The position numbers and the translations under genes were made by a program. The notes under the pieces were generated by a model, which was given only the letters and a program-made list of their open reading frames with translations, was not told the origin of the DNA and did not search any database. From the sequence record PQ799574.1: DNA of 64,000 nt; one strand, written 5' to 3'. Shown here piece after piece: positions 2,093-28,195 of this stretch. Origin of the DNA: Escherichia phage vB_EcoM_Maryam. The first letter of the stretch is position 1, and each line of letters begins with the position of its first letter.

Positions 2093-3906
2093 CAATTGAA
2101 AAAGAAATTGAAGGATTGATTCATAAAACTAATAAAGACCTTTTAAACGAGAATGCTAATAAAGATTCTCGTGTTTTTCCAACTCAACGGGACCTTATGG
2201 CTGGTATTGTGTCTAAACACATTGCCAAAAATATGGTCCCGTCTTTTATTATGAAAGCGCATGAAAGCGGAATTATTCATTTCCATGATATTGATTATTC
2301 CCCTGCTCTTCCATTTACTAATTGTTGTTTAGTAGATTTAAAAGGAATGCTTGAAAACGGATTTAAGCTAGGTAATGCGCAGATTGAAACTCCTAAATCA
2401 ATTGGCGTTGCTACTGCAATTATGGCACAAATTACTGCGCAAGTTGCTTCCCATCAATATGGCGGAACGACTTTTGCGAATGTAGATAAAGTACTTTCTC
2501 CTTATGTTAAACGCACCTATGCAAAACATATTGAGGATGCAGAAAAATGGCAAATCGCTGATGCGTTGAATTATGCCCAGTCTAAAACAGAAAAAGACGT
2601 ATACGATGCATTCCAAGCTTATGAATATGAAGTAAATACTCTTTTTAGTTCAAACGGACAAACTCCTTTTGTAACAATTACATTTGGTACGGGAACTGAC
2701 TGGACTGAACGAATGATTCAGAAAGCAATTCTGAAAAATCGTATTAAAGGTCTCGGTCGTGATGGGATAACTCCTATTTTCCCTAAGCTTGTTATGTTCG
2801 TCGAAGAAGGTGTTAATCTTTATAAAGACGATCCGAACTATGATATTAAACAGCTTGCTCTAGAGTGCGCAAGCAAAAGAATGTATCCTGACATCATTTC
2901 GGCTAAGAACAATAAAGCTATTACTGGTTCATCTGTTCCTGTTTCTCCAATGGGTTGCCGTAGTTTCTTGAGCGTATGGAAAGATTCGACTGGTAATGAA
3001 ATTCTTGATGGACGTAATAATCTTGGTGTTGTAACACTGAATCTTCCTCGTATCGCATTAGATTCTTATATTGGAACACAGTTCAATGAACAGAAATTTA
3101 TCGAATTGTTCAATGAGCGAATGGATTTGTGTTTTGAAGCTTTGATGTGTAGAATTAGTTCCTTAAAAGGAGTTAAAGCAACTGTTGCTCCTATTCTTTA
3201 CCAAGAAGGTGCATTCGGGGTTCGTCTTAAACCTGATGACGACATAATTGAGTTATTTAAAAACGGTAGAAGTTCAGTGTCTTTAGGATACATTGGTATT
3301 CACGAATTGAATATTCTTGTCGGTCGTGATATTGGACAAGAAATTTTAACTAAAATGAATGCTCATCTTAAACAGTGGACTGAAAGAACCGGATTTGCTT
3401 TTAGTTTATATTCGACTCCTGCTGAAAACCTTTGTTATCGCTTCTGTAAACTCGATACAGAAAAATATGGAAGCGTAAAAGATGTTACAGATAAAGGCTG
3501 GTACACTAACAGTTTCCATGTTTCAGTAGAAGAAAATATTACTCCGTTTGAAAAGATTTCTCGTGAAGCGCCATATCATTTCATTGCGACAGGTGGTCAC
3601 ATTTCTTATGTTGAACTTCCTGATATGAAAAATAACTTAAAGGGTCTTGAGGCCGTATGGGATTATGCTGCACAACATTTAGATTATTTTGGTGTTAACA
3701 TGCCGGTAGATAAATGTTTTACGTGTGGAAGTACCCATGAAATGACTCCTACTGAAAACGGATTTGTTTGTTCTATCTGTGGAGAAACTGATCCTAAAAA
3801 GATGAACACAATAAGAAGAACATGTGGTTATTTGGGAAATCCGAACGAACGCGGATTTAATCTCGGTAAAAATAAAGAAATCATGCATAGGGTTAAACAC
3901 CAATGA
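2089..3906 (+). CDS. nrdD: anaerobic ribonucleotide reductase large subunit NrdD (intron-less)
   Basis: 605 aa continuous ORF; glycyl-radical C-terminal region (RRTCGYLG) and Cys cluster; ATGA overlap with gene 49. Confidence 0.95.
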   Translation: MTIEKEIEGLIHKTNKDLLNENANKDSRVFPTQRDLMAGIVSKHIAKNMVPSFIMKAHESGIIHFHDIDYSPALPFTNCCLVDLKGMLENGFKLGNAQIETPKSIGVATAIMAQITAQVASHQYGGTTFANVDKVLSPYVKRTYAKHIEDAEKWQIADALNYAQSKTEKDVYDAFQAYEYEVNTLFSSNGQTPFVTITFGTGTDWTERMIQKAILKNRIKGLGRDGITPIFPKLVMFVEEGVNLYKDDPNYDIKQLALECASKRMYPDIISAKNNKAITGSSVPVSPMGCRSFLSVWKDSTGNEILDGRNNLGVVTLNLPRIALDSYIGTQFNEQKFIELFNERMDLCFEALMCRISSLKGVKATVAPILYQEGAFGVRLKPDDDIIELFKNGRSSVSLGYIGIHELNILVGRDIGQEILTKMNAHLKQWTERTGFAFSLYSTPAENLCYRFCKLDTEKYGSVKDVTDKGWYTNSFHVSVEENITPFEKISREAPYHFIATGGHISYVELPDMKNNLKGLEAVWDYAAQHLDYFGVNMPVDKCFTCGSTHEMTPTENGFVCSICGETDPKKMNTIRRTCGYLGNPNERGFNLGKNKEIMHRVKHQ

Positions 3907-4373
3907 ATTACGATAGATTTTATCCATGTGATTTTGTGAATGGCCCTGGATGCAGGGTCGTTCTTTTCGTTACAGGTTGTTTGCATAAATGCGAAGGGTG
4001 TTATAATAAATCAACATGGAATGCTAGAAATGGTATTCCATTCACTGGTGAAACACTAGAACAATTGATTGAATGTTTGAATAATGATTATATAGAAGGA
4101 TTGACTATAACCGGAGGTGACCCTCTCTATCCTGATAATCGAGATGTTATTCATTGCATTGTTCAAACAGTAAAAAATCTTTATCCCAATAAAAGCATTT
4201 GGTTGTGGACAGGATATAAATTTGAAGATATTAAACAACTAGAAATGCTTAAATATGTTGATGTTATTATTGATGGGAAGTATGAGAAAAATCTTCCGAC
4301 TAAAAAGCTATGGCGAGGATCAGATAATCAGCGGCTTTGGTCAAATACCGATGGGGTGTGGAAACATGATTAA
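3903..4373 (+). CDS. nrdG: anaerobic RNR activating protein NrdG (radical SAM)
   Basis: 156 aa; CxxxCxxC motif (CLHKCEGC); ATGA overlap with nrdD. Confidence 0.9.
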   Translation: MNYDRFYPCDFVNGPGCRVVLFVTGCLHKCEGCYNKSTWNARNGIPFTGETLEQLIECLNNDYIEGLTITGGDPLYPDNRDVIHCIVQTVKNLYPNKSIWLWTGYKFEDIKQLEMLKYVDVIIDGKYEKNLPTKKLWRGSDNQRLWSNTDGVWKHD

Positions 4374-7215: not shown

Positions 7216-7773
7216 ATGTCAGAAACTAAGCCTAAATATAATTACGTAAACAATAAAGAGCTTTTACAAGCTATTATTGATTGGAAAACAGAATTAGCAA
7301 ATAATAAAGACCCAAATAAAGTAGTTCGTCAGAATGATACTATCGGATTAGCCATTATGCTTATTGCAGAAGGCTTATCTAAGCGTTTCAACTTTTCAGG
7401 ATACACCCAGTCTTGGAAACAAGAAATGATTGCAGATGGTATAGAAGCTTCTATTAAGGGGCTTCACAATTTTGATGAAACGAAATATAAAAACCCACAT
7501 GCATATATAACTCAAGCTTGTTTTAATGCATTCGTCCAGCGTATTAAAAAAGAACGTAAGGAAGTTGCAAAGAAATATAGTTACTTCGTTCACAATGTCT
7601 ATGACAGTCGTGACGACGATATGGTTGCGTTAGTAGATGAAACTTTTATTCAAGACATCTACGATAAAATGACGCATTACGAAGAATCAACCTATAGAAC
7701 ACCGGGGGCTGAAAAGAAAAGTGTTGTAGACGATTCTCCTAGTTTGGATTTTTTATATGAGGCTAACGATTAA
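7216..7773 (+). CDS. 55: late-transcription sigma factor gp55
   Basis: 185 aa from ATG 7216 ([23 protein letters not shown]...), recalled T4 gp55; ORF track starts 6 nt upstream at GTG. Confidence 0.9.
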
Positions 7774-22104: not shown

Positions 22105-22134
22105 ATTATACCACATCCTTGTGGTAAAGTAAAC
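22105..22134 (-). promoter_or_regulatory. T4-type early promoter (GTTTAC ... TATAAT) for rIIA.1/rIIA
   Basis: Reverse complement reads GTTTAC ~18 nt TATAAT. Confidence 0.45.
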
Positions 22135-23954
22135 TACTGGCTCATCCATTCTTTACGAAGGTCAGCATTATCTCCCATGAGCATTTCAAAAAGCTCTTTC
22201 CAGTTCTCAGGAAGTTTAACAACATCATATACTGGGTTTTGAATCATCTCACGATATTCAGATTTTTCCAAAGAGCCAAGTCCCTTAATATAACGGATGC
22301 TATGTTTAGGTAGAGCATCTTTGGCACTCTCATATTCAGCGACTGTATAAAACCATTCTTGTTTTTTACCGACCTGAGCGATGATTACAGGAGTTTTGAC
22401 AAAGCGAATTCGTCCTTGCTCAAACAATTCTGGCCAATTACTAAAAAATCCAAGCAGAGAAGGATAAATGCTTCCTAGACCATCATGGTCAGCATCAGTC
22501 ATAATAGCAATATTATGATAATTCAAGTTTTCAGCTTTTTCACCGAGAACTAATCCAGTGATTGCGCAAATATCAAATAGTTCTTTGTTTTTAAGCATAT
22601 CAGCATATGACATACCCCAACTATTAAGAACTTTACCACGCAATGGATAACCACCATGAAGTTCTTTATCACGAACATCAATAAGATATCCGATAGCCGA
22701 ATCACCCTCAGTCAAGAAAAGAGTCGTGTCAGCATCTTTACCACAAAGATTCGCTTTAATATGTTTATGAACCTTAGCTTTAGAAGCCTTTTTAGCTGCT
22801 TTTGTTTCTGCTGCTTTTTCTGCTGCCAATTTACGAGCCAAAGCAGCTTCAATAATCGGCATTAGAATTGCTTCATTATTTAGAATAGCACGTGAAATCT
22901 TTTTAGCATCAAGCTGAATATGACTACGGATTTCACCAAATGGAGAAGTCAAACGCTCTTTAGTTTGAGAATCAAATCGCATGTTTTTCATATCACGAAC
23001 AAACATAACGATAGTCAAACATTCTTTAACACGTGCTTTAGTTACATCAATTTTGAATTTACGTTTGATTTGTGGAATAAGGTCTTCACAAATATCATCC
23101 ATAACACAGTCAATGTGATGGCCACCATTCTTAGTGTGAATGTTATTCACATAAGTTAATTGACGAAATCCATCCGGTGAACGACCAACCGCAATAGAAC
23201 AATTTTCTTGTTCTTGAACAATAGCATGTTCATCATACTGTCGTGCATATTTCTTAAAATTGCCCTGAACCTTTTTACCATTAAAGGTAAATTGAATATC
23301 AGGATAAACAACAGCAAGTGTCTGGAGACGATCTAGTGTAATATCAAGATAAACTTGGGACAGCTCATTAGTTTCAAATGACATAAAATCAGGAATGAAA
23401 GTAACACGTGTTCCTTTCCATTTTCCAGGAATATCTTCCCATGATTTATTTTCCATGCCATTTGAACAACGAACTACAATATTATTTTGACCATCACCCG
23501 TTTCACCAACAAACATCACAGAAAAAATGTTTGTCAAACTAGAACCAACACCATTCATACCGCCGGTGACACGTTCTTTATCATCACCAAAGTTACCACC
23601 CGCTTTTGGAATAGTCCAAGCAGCAACTGGACCAGGAATTTCTTCACCGGTAGGTGTTTTAACCATCGCTTGTGGAATACCACGACCGTTATCTTCAACT
23701 GTTACTTGATTGTTTTTAATAGTAACATTAATTTTATTTGCGAATTTAAACTTAGTACGAATACCTTCATCGACTGAGTTATCGATAATTTCATCAATAA
23801 GCTTAACAAGACCAGGTACATACTGAACACTTTCCCATTTACCAAACAGAAAGCGCTCATGCATTTCATTAGCAGAAGAGCCAATGTACATGCCACTACG
23901 CTTTTTGATATGTTCAATATCGCTCAGAATTTTAATTTCATTCTTAATCATCAC
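22134..23954 (-). CDS. 39: DNA topoisomerase II large (ATPase) subunit, single fused gp39 (T2-type, no gene 60 split)
   Basis: 606 aa continuous ORF covering both the ATPase domain and the TOPRIM-containing C-terminal part. Confidence 0.9.
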   Translation of the reverse strand: MMIKNEIKILSDIEHIKKRSGMYIGSSANEMHERFLFGKWESVQYVPGLVKLIDEIIDNSVDEGIRTKFKFANKINVTIKNNQVTVEDNGRGIPQAMVKTPTGEEIPGPVAAWTIPKAGGNFGDDKERVTGGMNGVGSSLTNIFSVMFVGETGDGQNNIVVRCSNGMENKSWEDIPGKWKGTRVTFIPDFMSFETNELSQVYLDITLDRLQTLAVVYPDIQFTFNGKKVQGNFKKYARQYDEHAIVQEQENCSIAVGRSPDGFRQLTYVNNIHTKNGGHHIDCVMDDICEDLIPQIKRKFKIDVTKARVKECLTIVMFVRDMKNMRFDSQTKERLTSPFGEIRSHIQLDAKKISRAILNNEAILMPIIEAALARKLAAEKAAETKAAKKASKAKVHKHIKANLCGKDADTTLFLTEGDSAIGYLIDVRDKELHGGYPLRGKVLNSWGMSYADMLKNKELFDICAITGLVLGEKAENLNYHNIAIMTDADHDGLGSIYPSLLGFFSNWPELFEQGRIRFVKTPVIIAQVGKKQEWFYTVAEYESAKDALPKHSIRYIKGLGSLEKSEYREMIQNPVYDVVKLPENWKELFEMLMGDNADLRKEWMSQ

Positions 23955-24004
23955 TTATCCTCGTTTGGTTTCGGGAATATTATACTCCGGTAATCATAAA
24001 GCTA

Positions 24005-24021
24005 AAGGCCCGAAGGCCTTT
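24005..24021. terminator. AGGCC-CGAA-GGCCT hairpin with flanking T-run
   Basis: Inverted repeat 24005-24018 followed by TTTTATTT. Confidence 0.45.
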
Positions 24022-24290
24022 TATTTAAAACGAATAGTTGAATCCTTAAAGAACAGCCCAGAACATACTGTTCCTTCTACTTTCTGCCCGGTAGGTCCAA
24101 TAGCACGAAATCCAGTATGTTGGAAATCATTTTCAGAGCAACCGAACCAGTTATATCCAGTGATTTCAATATTCGTAAAACCACTTGATGATAAAATTTT
24201 AGTTGCATTATCAGCATCAGTACATCCTACTAAAGATACTGCTAATACTAATGCTGCAATAGAACGATTAATATATTTCATAATTTTCAC
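24021..24290 (-). CDS. putative lipoprotein
   Basis: 89 aa; signal peptide with lipobox LVGC. Confidence 0.5.
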   Translation of the reverse strand: MKIMKYINRSIAALVLAVSLVGCTDADNATKILSSSGFTNIEITGYNWFGCSENDFQHTGFRAIGPTGQKVEGTVCSGLFFKDSTIRFK

Positions 24291-24658
24291 TTAAATTTAA
24301 TGGCTTGAAGAAGACTAATAACTCTCAAGCGACTTCTTTCATCTTTAACTGTAAAGGAAAGAGGGTCACCAGATTTCATAGTGATAGTGCATCCAAAATC
24401 AAAATTTTCGGGAACTTCTTTGAAGAAGTCAAATTCTTCATCATAAATTAGAACATTACTCTGACAACTATGAAGAATTTTTCCATCATTTCCAGATGCT
24501 GTACTAATCATTGTAACATTATGACCTTTCATATCTTCAACGATAAATTCACTAGTCAATATTACAGCATTAATAGAACTATTCCTATTACTAGCAGAAA
24601 GTAGAAATTTCTGTTCTTCACCTTCACGAATGCAATATTTCTTACCAATTTTAAACAT
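24287..24658 (-). CDS. hypothetical protein
   Basis: ORF track 123 aa. Confidence 0.5.
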   Translation of the reverse strand: MFKIGKKYCIREGEEQKFLLSASNRNSSINAVILTSEFIVEDMKGHNVTMISTASGNDGKILHSCQSNVLIYDEEFDFFKEVPENFDFGCTITMKSGDPLSFTVKDERSRLRVISLLQAIKFK

Positions 24659-25265: not shown

Positions 25266-25480
25266 TAATAAATTTCCTTCCAGTAAGTTGTGCCATCTTC
25301 AGTAATTTCACGAAATACACCGTAAATTGGTTGTTTATCACCAACCTTTTCATACACATAAACCGAAGTCAAGTGAGTAAACTTAACGGTATGTTCCTTT
25401 TGAACCACTACCAAATCTGGATCAAATAATACATCTTCAAATTCGTCATTAGTGCAATTCTGAACAATTTTACGTTTCAT
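25265..25480 (-). CDS. hypothetical protein
   Basis: ORF track 71 aa. Confidence 0.5.
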
Positions 25481-25493
25481 TACAATTTCCTCA

Positions 25494-25775
25494 TTAATTA
25501 AACATTGGAGCGATACGTTTCAGAAGAGTAGCAGCACCTTTAGCGAATTTTACATCATGAAAAACAGTTTCTTCTTCTGTAACAACTCGAACTTTAATAT
25601 TTTCACAATCCCAATTTTTACGAACAATCTTCAAAAGCTGCAGTAAATCTTTACATTCAGCAATATCGATAACACATCCACGAGAATCTTCCATTATCGC
25701 ACGATAACCGTAAGCCATACCATAATCGTTGAAAGATTGCTCGATGATAATTAAGTTTTCCATTTTATTCTCCAA
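25494..25775 (-). CDS. hypothetical protein
   Basis: ORF track 93 aa. Confidence 0.5.
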   Translation of the reverse strand: MENKMENLIIIEQSFNDYGMAYGYRAIMEDSRGCVIDIAECKDLLQLLKIVRKNWDCENIKVRVVTEEETVFHDVKFAKGAATLLKRIAPMFN

Positions 25776-25860
25776 GTTGTTTTCTGTATCAGTAGTTGAT
25801 ATTGATATAGTACCATAATCAACTACTGATGTATATAGTTTTATGAAAAAATTTTAAACT

Positions 25861-26352
25861 TTATGCATAGCGAGCTTTGCTGTAGTGTTTAATCCAACTT
25901 TCAGGAATGACTTTGTATGTTCCTAAAAATACCGCGTTGTATAACTTAACGCCATCTTCTACCCATTGATCAGTAATGTATGCACACATAGCGCGAGTAC
26001 GGTTAACAACACCTTCCTCACCTTCAGTAAATTCAAACTCATAAGGAGCAACGAACTTGATAGCTTGACCGAGTTTCCACTTAAAGTCTACACCTACATG
26101 CGAAGTATCAATCGTTTCAATTCCTTTAGCGGGAACAGCTTTCAAAAACGCAGGCTCAAGAAATTTCCATCGAACATAACCAAACTGAGGTTTAGACATT
26201 CCATCTTTAGGAATGATACGCACTTTTACTTCAGAATCTTCATCTTTAACACCATGTTTAAGCTGAATGCTTACGACTTCAACCAATTTTCCTGCTGCTT
26301 TAGAACGGGATTTATCAGATACACGAGCAATTTCACCGATATTAATATTCAT
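25861..26352 (-). CDS. hypothetical protein (paralog of next ORF)
   Basis: 163 aa; C-terminal WVEDGVKLYNAVFLGTYKVIPESW similar to WIEDGVELLNVVHAGEYSVVPRS in 26426..26926. Confidence 0.5.
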   Translation of the reverse strand: MNINIGEIARVSDKSRSKAAGKLVEVVSIQLKHGVKDEDSEVKVRIIPKDGMSKPQFGYVRWKFLEPAFLKAVPAKGIETIDTSHVGVDFKWKLGQAIKFVAPYEFEFTEGEEGVVNRTRAMCAYITDQWVEDGVKLYNAVFLGTYKVIPESWIKHYSKARYA

Positions 26353-26425
26353 AATTATCTCTCACTTGTTAAAAAGATTTTATACTCCGCAGGACCATTA
26401 TACTCTGGTCCCAAGAGTTTGTAAA

Positions 26426-26926
26426 CTAGCTTACACGAACATTAATCACTGCGCTGCGAGGAACTACGGAGTACTCTCCAGCATGAACTACGTTCAGAAG
26501 TTCAACACCATCTTCAATCCACTGATCAGTTACCCAACCGCCAATCGGATTCGCGAATGGACGACGAATATAAACTGCCTTACACAACAAATCAGTCGGG
26601 TCTTCAATTTTTTCAACTGGTGTTACATACATAGAAACTAAATCCATATCAATATGGGATTTTTCTTGTTCTTCTTTTTCAATTTCTGTCAATAAATTGA
26701 AATCTTCTTCATAGATGATGAATGATGATACCCTTCCATAATAGTTTCTAATTTCCATGTACACTGTACCAATGAGAATTCCGCTATTAACACTAATAAC
26801 AGTAAAAGGATATCCGCCAGTTGTACCAAGAAGTTCCCAAAACTTGCTATCAGTCGTATTCGACATTGTCTGGAAATCAATTTCAGATGGTTTTTTCATT
26901 TGATACGTAGTATTAATTTTAATCAT
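26426..26926 (-). CDS. hypothetical protein (paralog of previous ORF)
   Basis: 166 aa; shared C-terminal motif. Confidence 0.5.
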   Translation of the reverse strand: MIKINTTYQMKKPSEIDFQTMSNTTDSKFWELLGTTGGYPFTVISVNSGILIGTVYMEIRNYYGRVSSFIIYEEDFNLLTEIEKEEQEKSHIDMDLVSMYVTPVEKIEDPTDLLCKAVYIRRPFANPIGGWVTDQWIEDGVELLNVVHAGEYSVVPRSAVINVRVS

Positions 26927-26935
26927 AATTTTCCT

Positions 26936-27487
26936 TTAATCTAAGGTAATAAAGCCTTTTAATTCGGCATGCGATTTGCGAAACATTACTTGATGCCCAC
27001 CAATGATAACTTGATCATCTGGCACTTCATAAATCGCAATGTACATTCCACGATCTTTTAAGTCTTCACGCTCTTCTCGAGTAAACCATCTCATTATATC
27101 ATATTCACTAGCGAAAGCAAAATGATATAATGCAATAAACCACAATGGAATATAATTTTCAATTCGTGAATAATCTTTATTCCATTTAGTTTTAATAGCA
27201 TCATTAGCATTTTCAACTAATAACTTATCATCGTGTGGAATAGGAATACTTTCATGACTTTCATAATCATTGCTATGATGATGAAATGATGATGAATTAA
27301 TACCGCAAAATTTTAGCCAAGTTCGAGTTTTCATAGAATCAAATCCACGATAAGGAGTTGATTGAACACATAACTCTTGCCTAATTTTCATTATACCACT
27401 ATCATCATTTAATGCGCTAAACGATGATTCAACACGATAAATTTTCATTTTATTATCCTCAGTAGCTATGGTGTTATAATACCACAA
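26936..27487 (-). CDS. hypothetical protein
   Basis: ORF track 183 aa; start may be internal. Confidence 0.45.
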   Translation of the reverse strand: MWYYNTIATEDNKMKIYRVESSFSALNDDSGIMKIRQELCVQSTPYRGFDSMKTRTWLKFCGINSSSFHHHSNDYESHESIPIPHDDKLLVENANDAIKTKWNKDYSRIENYIPLWFIALYHFAFASEYDIMRWFTREEREDLKDRGMYIAIYEVPDDQVIIGGHQVMFRKSHAELKGFITLD

Positions 27488-27511
27488 CTAACCGAGGAAG
27501 TAAACAACTTT

Positions 27512-28195
27512 TTATCGTTTTGTTGGAAGAGATAGAGGATCGCACTCTTCCTCTGATGGAGCGTCTTCAAGACCCATCGCATAGCGCAAAGCATACTTCA
27601 TCATCAGGATGTCTTTCGCACAGTCATGAATAGAATCATGCGCAACGAATCCATCTAAAGTTCCCTTTGGAAGAGGACATGTGGTCATATCACGAACAAG
27701 CAGAAGTGCTTCAATTCTGGTACGAATATCACGCTGATTCCAGAATTTACATGGTTCTAACTTAAATGTGTCAAGCTCATTCTCAGATACACCATTAAGG
27801 CGTTGAATATCACGAATGAGATCGACTAAAATTGGAAAATCAAACGACATTCCACGGCACCAGCCTTGAGATTTCCAAGGATCGATATTATGTGCATTGA
27901 TGTAATCATTAAATTTCGCAATACCGTCGATAGTGCTTACATCTTCATCGGACGGTGCAATATTTTTTCGAGCTTCAGGAGACTGATTTTTCCACCATTC
28001 GATAGTGCTTTTAGTAAAAAGACGGTGTCCTTTTTGGCTTTTTAAATCAAATTTGATTTTAATGCCGCGTGAAACTAATTCATCAAATGTTTCAACTACT
28101 TCTGGGTTAGGGTCAAAAGCAATTACAGCTAAATCAATAACAGCTGCTTTTTCACCACTTCCCATTGTTTCAAAATCTATAATAAAATCAAACAT
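27512..28195 (-). CDS. dexA: exonuclease A (DEDD 3'-5' exonuclease)
   Basis: 227 aa, MFDFIIDFETMGSGEKAAVIDLAVIAF... DEDDh-type motifs. Confidence 0.9.
   Translation of the reverse strand: MFDFIIDFETMGSGEKAAVIDLAVIAFDPNPEVVETFDELVSRGIKIKFDLKSQKGHRLFTKSTIEWWKNQSPEARKNIAPSDEDVSTIDGIAKFNDYINAHNIDPWKSQGWCRGMSFDFPILVDLIRDIQRLNGVSENELDTFKLEPCKFWNQRDIRTRIEALLLVRDMTTCPLPKGTLDGFVAHDSIHDCAKDILMMKYALRYAMGLEDAPSEEECDPLSLPTKR

Follow-up and report, generated by a model that had tools for sequence, protein, structure and literature searches.

MotB of phage T4 is a protein of the nucleoid-associated type, the DNA-binding of which is not sequence-specific and extends to both modified and unmodified DNA; H-NS and StpA co-purify with it, and it alters H-NS footprints. 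The protein is toxic when overproduced, and a burst size raised about two-fold has been reported for it (PMC6070864; PMC7827196). The homology between its C-terminal domain (CTD) and that of MotB.1, the different N-terminal domains (NTDs) of both proteins and the hypothesis of a duplication have already been published (Patterson-West et al., 2021; PMC7827196). There, 102 phage homologues were sorted into MotB and three MotB.1-related categories, with T4 MotB.1 representing 'Category 2', and either of the two MotB domains was proposed to be able to bind DNA. An HHpred analysis in the same study described the MotB NTD as KOW-like and the CTD as a five-stranded, cold-shock-like OB fold, comparable to the C-domain of aIF5A (PMC7827196). 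For the NTD of MotB.1 an LSm-like fold with a bent five-stranded antiparallel beta-sheet was predicted, which is common to GoF and Frd.2 (Kim et al., 2025; PMC12152347). T4 motB.1 amber mutants exhibited no plating defect, a motB.1 deletion caused no defect in burst size or latent period, and MotB.1 had no strong effect in an mRNA-stability reporter assay; in the laboratory, T4 can do without MotB.1 (PMC12152347). Annotation pipelines also already label both genes ('MotB-like transcriptional regulator', 'Transcription regulator MotB domain-containing protein'). As the relationship between motB and motB.1 and the idea of a duplication are known from the literature and from these pipelines, the finding of the pair itself adds little and is of low interest. 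The probable origin of motB.1 at the level of a domain, a frameshift in the T4 reference and a motif in the linker of MotB.1 are of modest value and could help in assigning a function to MotB.1.

The window, i.e., the whole stretch of 64 kb that was analysed here, stems from a Tequatrovirus (T4-like) genome. Its region 25400-27600 shares 99.0% identity with Shigella phage ESH35 and Escherichia phage AR1 and 98.8-98.9% identity with wV7 and RB18. The relevant genes are all located on the (-) strand; with increasing coordinates, they are 39, 39.1, an extra ORF, 39.2, goF, cef, an extra 93-aa ORF, motB, motB.1, motB.2, dexA, dexA.1/dexA.2 and dda. The sequence-only reading had proposed two genes between gene 39 and dexA with a possible relation to MotB. 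The order of the ORFs and the annotation of AR1 agree with this placement, both ORFs (163 and 166 aa) were found on the (-) strand at the proposed coordinates and contain the peptides that had been quoted for them, and homology searches against Pfam and PHROG identified one as MotB itself and the other as MotB.1. The features of the locus are as follows:

25861..26352, (-) strand: motB coding sequence, 163 aa plus stop, encoding MotB, a DNA-binding early protein (Pfam PF17613, phrog_1671; annotated motB in AR1 and RB18)
26149..26352, (-) strand: MotB NTD, aa 1-68, a predicted KOW-like basic five-stranded barrel, pI 9.6 (AlphaFold2, motif, charge, KOW prediction in PMC7827196)
25864..26091, (-) strand: MotB CTD, aa 88-163, with an extra beta-hairpin extension of 13-16 residues (hhalign, CTD HMM, AlphaFold2)
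25897..25983, (-) strand: MotB core motif AYITDQWVEDGVKLYNAVFLGTYKVIPES, aa 124-152 (BLASTP segment, invariant columns)
26397..26425, (-) strand: early-promoter-like site (GTTTACA, 17 nt, TATAAT) between motB.1 and motB (11 of 12 consensus positions matched)
26426..26926, (-) strand: motB.1 coding sequence, 166 aa plus stop (phrog_2333; annotated motB.1 in AR1)
26675..26926, (-) strand: MotB.1 NTD, aa 1-84, a predicted GoF/LSm-like beta-barrel with one helix, acidic (AlphaFold2, phrog_622, Foldseek, PMC12152347)
26617..26682, (-) strand: MotB.1 linker segment of 66 bp (22 aa), not present in T4-type motB.1 (DNA and protein alignment with T4, motif census, AlphaFold2)
26429..26602, (-) strand: MotB.1 CTD, aa 109-166, the short form of the shared module (hhalign, Pfam match at aa 121-160, AlphaFold2)
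26453..26539, (-) strand: MotB.1 core motif GWVTDQWIEDGVELLNVVHAGEYSVVPRS, aa 130-158 (BLASTP segment)

The ORF at 25861..26352 matched the Pfam model PF17613 ('motB') over all of its positions (1-162 of 162) with 321.5 bits (cut-off 25; E 1.1e-96) and phrog_1671 with an E-value of 2e-76. Like T4 MotB, of which it is an orthologue, the protein combines a KOW-like NTD with the CTD, and its gene likewise lies between cef and motB.1 next to a putative early promoter. It has 95% identity to the closest database cluster and about 86% to the T4-type cluster. The DNA-binding and the effects on H-NS were shown only for the T4 protein. The ORF at 26426..26926 matched phrog_2333 over its full length (protein residues 1-165, E 1.8e-83) and is 100% identical to the gene annotated as motB.1 in AR1. 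It lies directly upstream of motB and downstream of motB.2/dexA, which is syntenic with both AR1 and T4, and starts 9 nt past the stop codon of motB.2 with AAGGAAA as Shine-Dalgarno sequence. In its position, its phrog_2333 match and its combination of NTD and CTD it resembles T4 MotB.1 (T4p012 / P39415), yet the protein has 166 aa compared to the 143-144 aa of the common T4-type form, which does not contain the 22-aa linker segment. As the comparison with T4 motB.1 yielded a dN/dS of 0.05 over 136 codons (14 synonymous and 3 non-synonymous changes), motB.1 is under strong purifying selection and thus encodes a functional protein. The site at 26397..26425 presumably acts as an early promoter; it is conserved in T4, where the stop codon of motB.1 is likewise followed by GTTTACAAACTCTTGGG.

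The AlphaFold2 model of MotB (mean pLDDT 81) consists of two small five-stranded beta-barrels and a disordered linker (residues 70-83, pLDDT <50). Strands of the NTD were predicted at residues 8-11, 23-30, 41-46, 56-61 and 65-67, and this domain carries a conserved VSxxSRSKAAGK motif. The CTD, which was matched by the CTD HMM with an E-value of 8e-35, has its strands at residues 97-110, 115-132, 135-142, 145-150 and 154-157. Its first hairpin is long, corresponds to the insertion in the alignment and differs in this respect from the CTD of MotB.1. MotB.1 was modelled as two small beta-barrels and a disordered linker as well (mean pLDDT 79; linker residues 86-106, pLDDT <50). Its NTD, predicted to contain a strand at residues 7-10, a helix at 23-36 and further strands at 41-48, 54-60, 66-72 and 79-82, does not align with the KOW-like NTD of MotB in hhalign. 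The CTD strands of MotB.1 were predicted at residues 117-120, 128-138, 141-148, 151-156 and 160-162. For MotB the pI is 9.0 as a whole and 6.8 in the CTD, while MotB.1 has a pI of 4.6 as a whole (net charge about -10) and of 5.0 in the CTD.

A C-terminal module common to both genes, and with it their paralogy, had been claimed from the letters of the DNA and was recovered by BLASTP, Pfam, PHROG and hhalign alike. In a composition-corrected pairwise BLASTP, MotB 124-152 aligned with MotB.1 130-158 (16 of 29 residues identical, 21 of 29 positive; E 9e-10), and no second significant segment was obtained outside this 29-residue core. As to similarity beyond the short motif, on which the sequence-only reading had let its claim depend, BLASTP thus gave none, but profiles lengthened the match, albeit across the CTD only. 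The Pfam motB model matched MotB.1 121-160 with its positions 114-153 only (33.4 bits compared to a gathering threshold of 25; E 5e-8), which makes MotB.1, judged by this match, a partial member of PF17613 through its CTD only, and the PHROG profile of MotB aligned to MotB.1 79-162 (E 1.6e-15). Family alignments were built from database homologues for MotB (n = 27) and for the MotB.1 type (n = 22). Their comparison by hhalign resulted in one match between MotB 93-156 and MotB.1 113-162 (50 columns, probability 98.1%, E 1.3e-13), in which a 13-residue gap represents the extra sequence of MotB; the N-terminal halves gave no match. When every stop-to-stop segment of the 64-kb window was scanned in six frames with filters off, the CTD HMM found two copies only (E 5e-35 and 9e-23), the next best segment having an E-value of 0.31. 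Invariant residues of the CTD are D, W, E, G, L, N and V, which are located in the second and third strands. The identity of both genes and their domain relationship can be stated with high confidence.

Similarity of this kind might in principle arise by chance or from composition in two unrelated small beta-rich proteins, as the pairwise BLAST aligns no more than 29 residues and as the CTD profile also draws spurious repeats in Ig-domain proteins. The probability of this is next to nil, however, since it is refuted by the E-values of the composition-corrected BLASTP and of hhalign and by the passed Pfam gathering threshold, and no other segment in the six-frame scan was better than E 0.3. Very improbable, though slightly less so, is an ongoing gene conversion between the two neighbours which would keep the shared motif alike instead of old descent under selection. 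The genes are indeed close together, and in either family the core shows very high conservation. Yet the core DNA of motB and motB.1 is 57% identical (41% at third codon positions), the same codon is used for 10 of the 16 identical amino acids, and a long identical tract is absent. The two CTD types furthermore separate into groups by sequence, being 36% identical to each other compared to 66-91% within the MotB.1 type. By these measures the CTD copies are old and carry no sign of recent gene conversion, and the low identity of the core DNA and of its third codon positions likewise indicates an old duplication event.

Regarding the nature of this event, a tandem duplication with subsequent divergence had been read from the sequence. 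Its C-terminal paralogy holds, but the homology is limited to the last 50-64 residues and the N-terminal halves belong to different families according to hhalign, phrog_622 and Foldseek. A duplication of the whole ancestral motB, after which one N-terminal half would have diverged past recognition and left the CTD alone recognisable, appears rather unlikely, although it would fit two adjacent genes of similar length (163 and 166 aa) on the same strand, the prediction of a five-stranded SH3-like barrel with a disordered linker to the CTD in both N-terminal halves and the duplication proposed earlier (PMC7827196). It does not fit the lack of N-terminal similarity in hhalign, nor the helix at residues 23-36 of MotB.1, which is absent from the MotB NTD. 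The MotB.1 NTD, moreover, matches GoF (phrog_622, E 2e-4; Foldseek, E 2e-3) and not the KOW families, and among its homologues the CTD is combined with three or more kinds of N-terminal region, which points to domain shuffling. As the NTD of MotB.1 matches the GoF family, distant phages carry a single KOW+CTD gene and the CTD is joined to several N-terminal regions, the evidence favours a partial duplication or transfer of the CTD, which was fused to a different NTD, over a tandem duplication of the whole gene. The overall best explanation, which we regard as very probable, identifies the two ORFs as motB and motB.1, early genes of the T4 family that are paralogous only in a C-terminal small beta-barrel of ~50-75 residues; an origin at the level of the domain is the most likely history.

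The link between GoF and the MotB.1 NTD is weak at the level of sequence. Whole MotB.1 matched phrog_622 (the GoF family) with an E-value of 2.2e-4 and its NTD alone with 9e-3, while GoF of the window matched the same family with 1.8e-40. Among viral models, Foldseek related MotB.1 to GoF of VR7 (the match mentioned above). The hhalign comparison between the MotB.1 family and a GoF alignment was not significant (E 0.22); this GoF alignment was shallow, its listed homologues all being at least 79% identical. A BLASTP of MotB.1 against GoF of the window was not significant either (E 2.9). The GoF/Frd.2 LSm-like proteins of Tevenvirinae (phrog_622, Pfam PF03197 FRD2) resemble MotB.1 by a weak match to its NTD, with goF being located 1.2 kb downstream; unlike MotB.1, GoF has another C-terminal half without a MotB-type CTD.

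A search with a CTD profile against 1.84 billion representative proteins (E <= 1e-3) returned 35 matches, about 29 of which are genuine. Among the latter, the inspected proteins are small and come, where the source is known, from T4-like phages. Six long Ig-repeat/phage-tail proteins (P0243, P0245, P0246, P0249, P0251 and P0253) were discarded, since Pfam scans and inspection showed that their repeats had been matched spuriously. A KOW-like N-terminus is present in all of the most divergent genuine members (P0242, P0247, P0248 and P0252). Klebsiella phage Potts1 (Marfavirus) encodes a single KOW+CTD gene of 144 aa between dexA and cef, and single KOW+CTD genes were also found at two metagenomic T4-like loci, in one upstream of cef and in the other downstream of dexA. 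A close relative of such a single gene, P0055, represents an intermediate form: it aligns with MotB over the full length (27% identity, E 8e-13), whereas its CTD is of the short MotB.1 type with 69% identity to the CTD of MotB.1 in the window compared to 36% to that of MotB. This comparative evidence suggests that motB.1 arose by a domain-level duplication or fusion from an ancestral single KOW+CTD gene. The ancestral locus would then have contained one gene with a KOW domain and a short CTD, and motB.1 would have arisen when the 3′ domain of this gene was copied onto a GoF-like neighbour or recombined with it. The CTD of the retained T4-type motB may have gained its hairpin extension later on.

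One of the metagenomic T4-like contigs (L006) encodes a 169-aa protein (3492-4001) directly upstream of the single KOW+CTD gene. Its similarity to PHROGs of the GoF superfamily (E 0.004) and to the last part of the MotB.1 NTD (E 0.006) is marginal, and no similarity to motB.2 was found for it. These marginal matches are a hint that a GoF-like gene may have adjoined motB before it acquired the CTD. In a further sequence, P0244 (43 aa), the N-terminus of motB.2 (MKIYRVESSFS) is fused to the final 28 residues of the CTD of MotB.1. Some T-even phages have accordingly deleted most of motB.2 and motB.1. P0244 fits many tblastn matches that cover 54 aa only, and a 29-aa RB69 peptide mentioned previously agrees with a deletion of this type (PMC7827196).

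The linker segment that sets the MotB.1 of the window apart from the T4 type is flanked by an 8-bp direct repeat, TTGAAAAA, and encodes the motif HIDMDLVSMYVTPVEK, which is predicted to be disordered. Motifs like hDxDhxSxYxxPhxP were found in 88 of 237 CTD-bearing proteins, in 68 cases at the N-terminus and in 20 in the linker, and related ones also occur in KOW-type MotB-like proteins of Klebsiella phages. As the motif recurs in so many of the CTD-bearing proteins, it is probable that the long form of MotB.1 is ancestral and that the T4 form is a deletion. A conserved, movable short motif in a disordered linker is of modest value for assigning the function of MotB.1.

The T4 reference NC_000866.4 (= AF158101.6) differs from other T4 records within motB.1 (locus 7291-7650). 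It contains one extra G, reading ATTGGAAGATGG instead of ATTGAAGATGG, so that the MotB.1 of the reference is cut off midway through the conserved core (...GWVTDQWI-GRWR*) and comprises 119 aa. In 13 other records of T4, T4T, RB55 and RB59 this G is missing and 143 aa are encoded. Kim et al. used NC_000866.4 coordinates for their mutagenesis fragments and reported a MotB.1 monomer of 13.8 kDa (PMC12152347). Owing to this size and these coordinates, the MotB.1 of the published work may be the truncated form, which is missing half of the shared domain, and the frameshift in the reference may bear on the negative functional tests of MotB.1.

In the models of both CTDs, DSSP assigned a short 3-10 turn before the last strand and no inter-strand helix. 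A 3-10 turn ahead of the last strand is typical of SH3-like small barrels. The best Foldseek matches of both models in the PDB were the tandem Tudor domain of 53BP1 (2g3r), the UHRF1 TTD, tandem Agenet domains, Spt5 KOW and ribosomal KOW domains, with weak scores (E 1e-3 to 5e-2, TM 0.25-0.38) due to the two domains having no fixed mutual orientation. IF5A (8put_F) ranked 20th among the matches for MotB (E 0.025). Regarding the MotB NTD, the model agrees with the KOW-like domain predicted in PMC7827196. For the CTD we lean toward an SH3-like barrel, as modelled; the published OB-fold call is not clearly supported by whole-model Foldseek. Tandem Tudor/Agenet/KOW proteins such as 53BP1 (2g3r), UHRF1 (TTD) and Spt5 (KOW6-7) share with MotB and MotB.1 the two five-stranded SH3-like barrels and the 3-10 turn before the last strand, but this is a likeness of fold only at 10-15% identity and without a sequence relationship; membership in the Tudor/'Royal family' of methyl-lysine readers is not claimed. 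Sequence searches of PDB chains with MotB, MotB.1 and the CTD profile yielded nothing meaningful, and no relative has a solved structure.

With respect to function, the basic KOW-like NTD would be the more likely DNA-binding part of MotB. As the CTD of MotB is neutral and that of MotB.1 acidic, both with the invariant residues D, W, E, G, L, N and V, this domain might rather serve as a common docking or self-association surface than as the main DNA-binding surface, which is proposed with low confidence. Equally tentatively, the NTDs might set the target, DNA in the case of MotB and RNA or protein in the case of MotB.1, and MotB.1 would bring its acidic GoF/LSm-like NTD to the partner of MotB. 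Such a functional division of labour between NTD and CTD is put forward with low confidence. A more specific scenario, which has to be regarded as improbable, would be that the shared barrel with its invariant D-x-W-x-E-x-G face is a Tudor-like docking module, either for a basic host partner (H-NS/StpA) or for a hetero-association of MotB and MotB.1. MotB.1 would then be a second, acidic effector on the same host target, the function of which would have been missed since the T4 reference allele, the likely basis of the published constructs, is frameshifted in the middle of the domain, and the conserved linker motif hDxDhxSxYxxPhxP, which T4-type MotB.1 has lost, would be a further short interaction motif.

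Further observations concern other genes in the neighbourhood. The motB.2 ORF at 26936..27487, (-) strand, was called by the program with a TTG start (183 aa), while motB.2 of AR1 has 170 aa starting from MKIYRVESS, which corresponds to about 26936..27448 in the window. It matched only phrog_1106, which has no assigned function; a Pfam match or a relation to the CTD of MotB was not found. Between cef and motB, the window contains a 93-aa ORF (25494..25775, (-) strand), which matches phrog_3720 (function not assigned) and is ar1_010 in AR1, whereas this place is taken in T4 by non-coding DNA of about 170 nt only. The 123-aa ORF between 39.1 and 39.2 (24287..24658, (-) strand; ar1_005 in AR1, 'no match in nr') looks like another lineage-specific small early gene. 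A 136-aa ORF (23884..24294, (+) strand; ar1_006 in AR1), which runs opposite to 39.1 and overlaps it, is probably a spurious call, as the early gene cluster is uniformly on the (-) strand. Gene 39, which encodes the large subunit of topoisomerase II (22134..23954, (-) strand), is a single ORF of 606 aa in the window; in T4, the gene for this subunit is split into genes 39 and 60.
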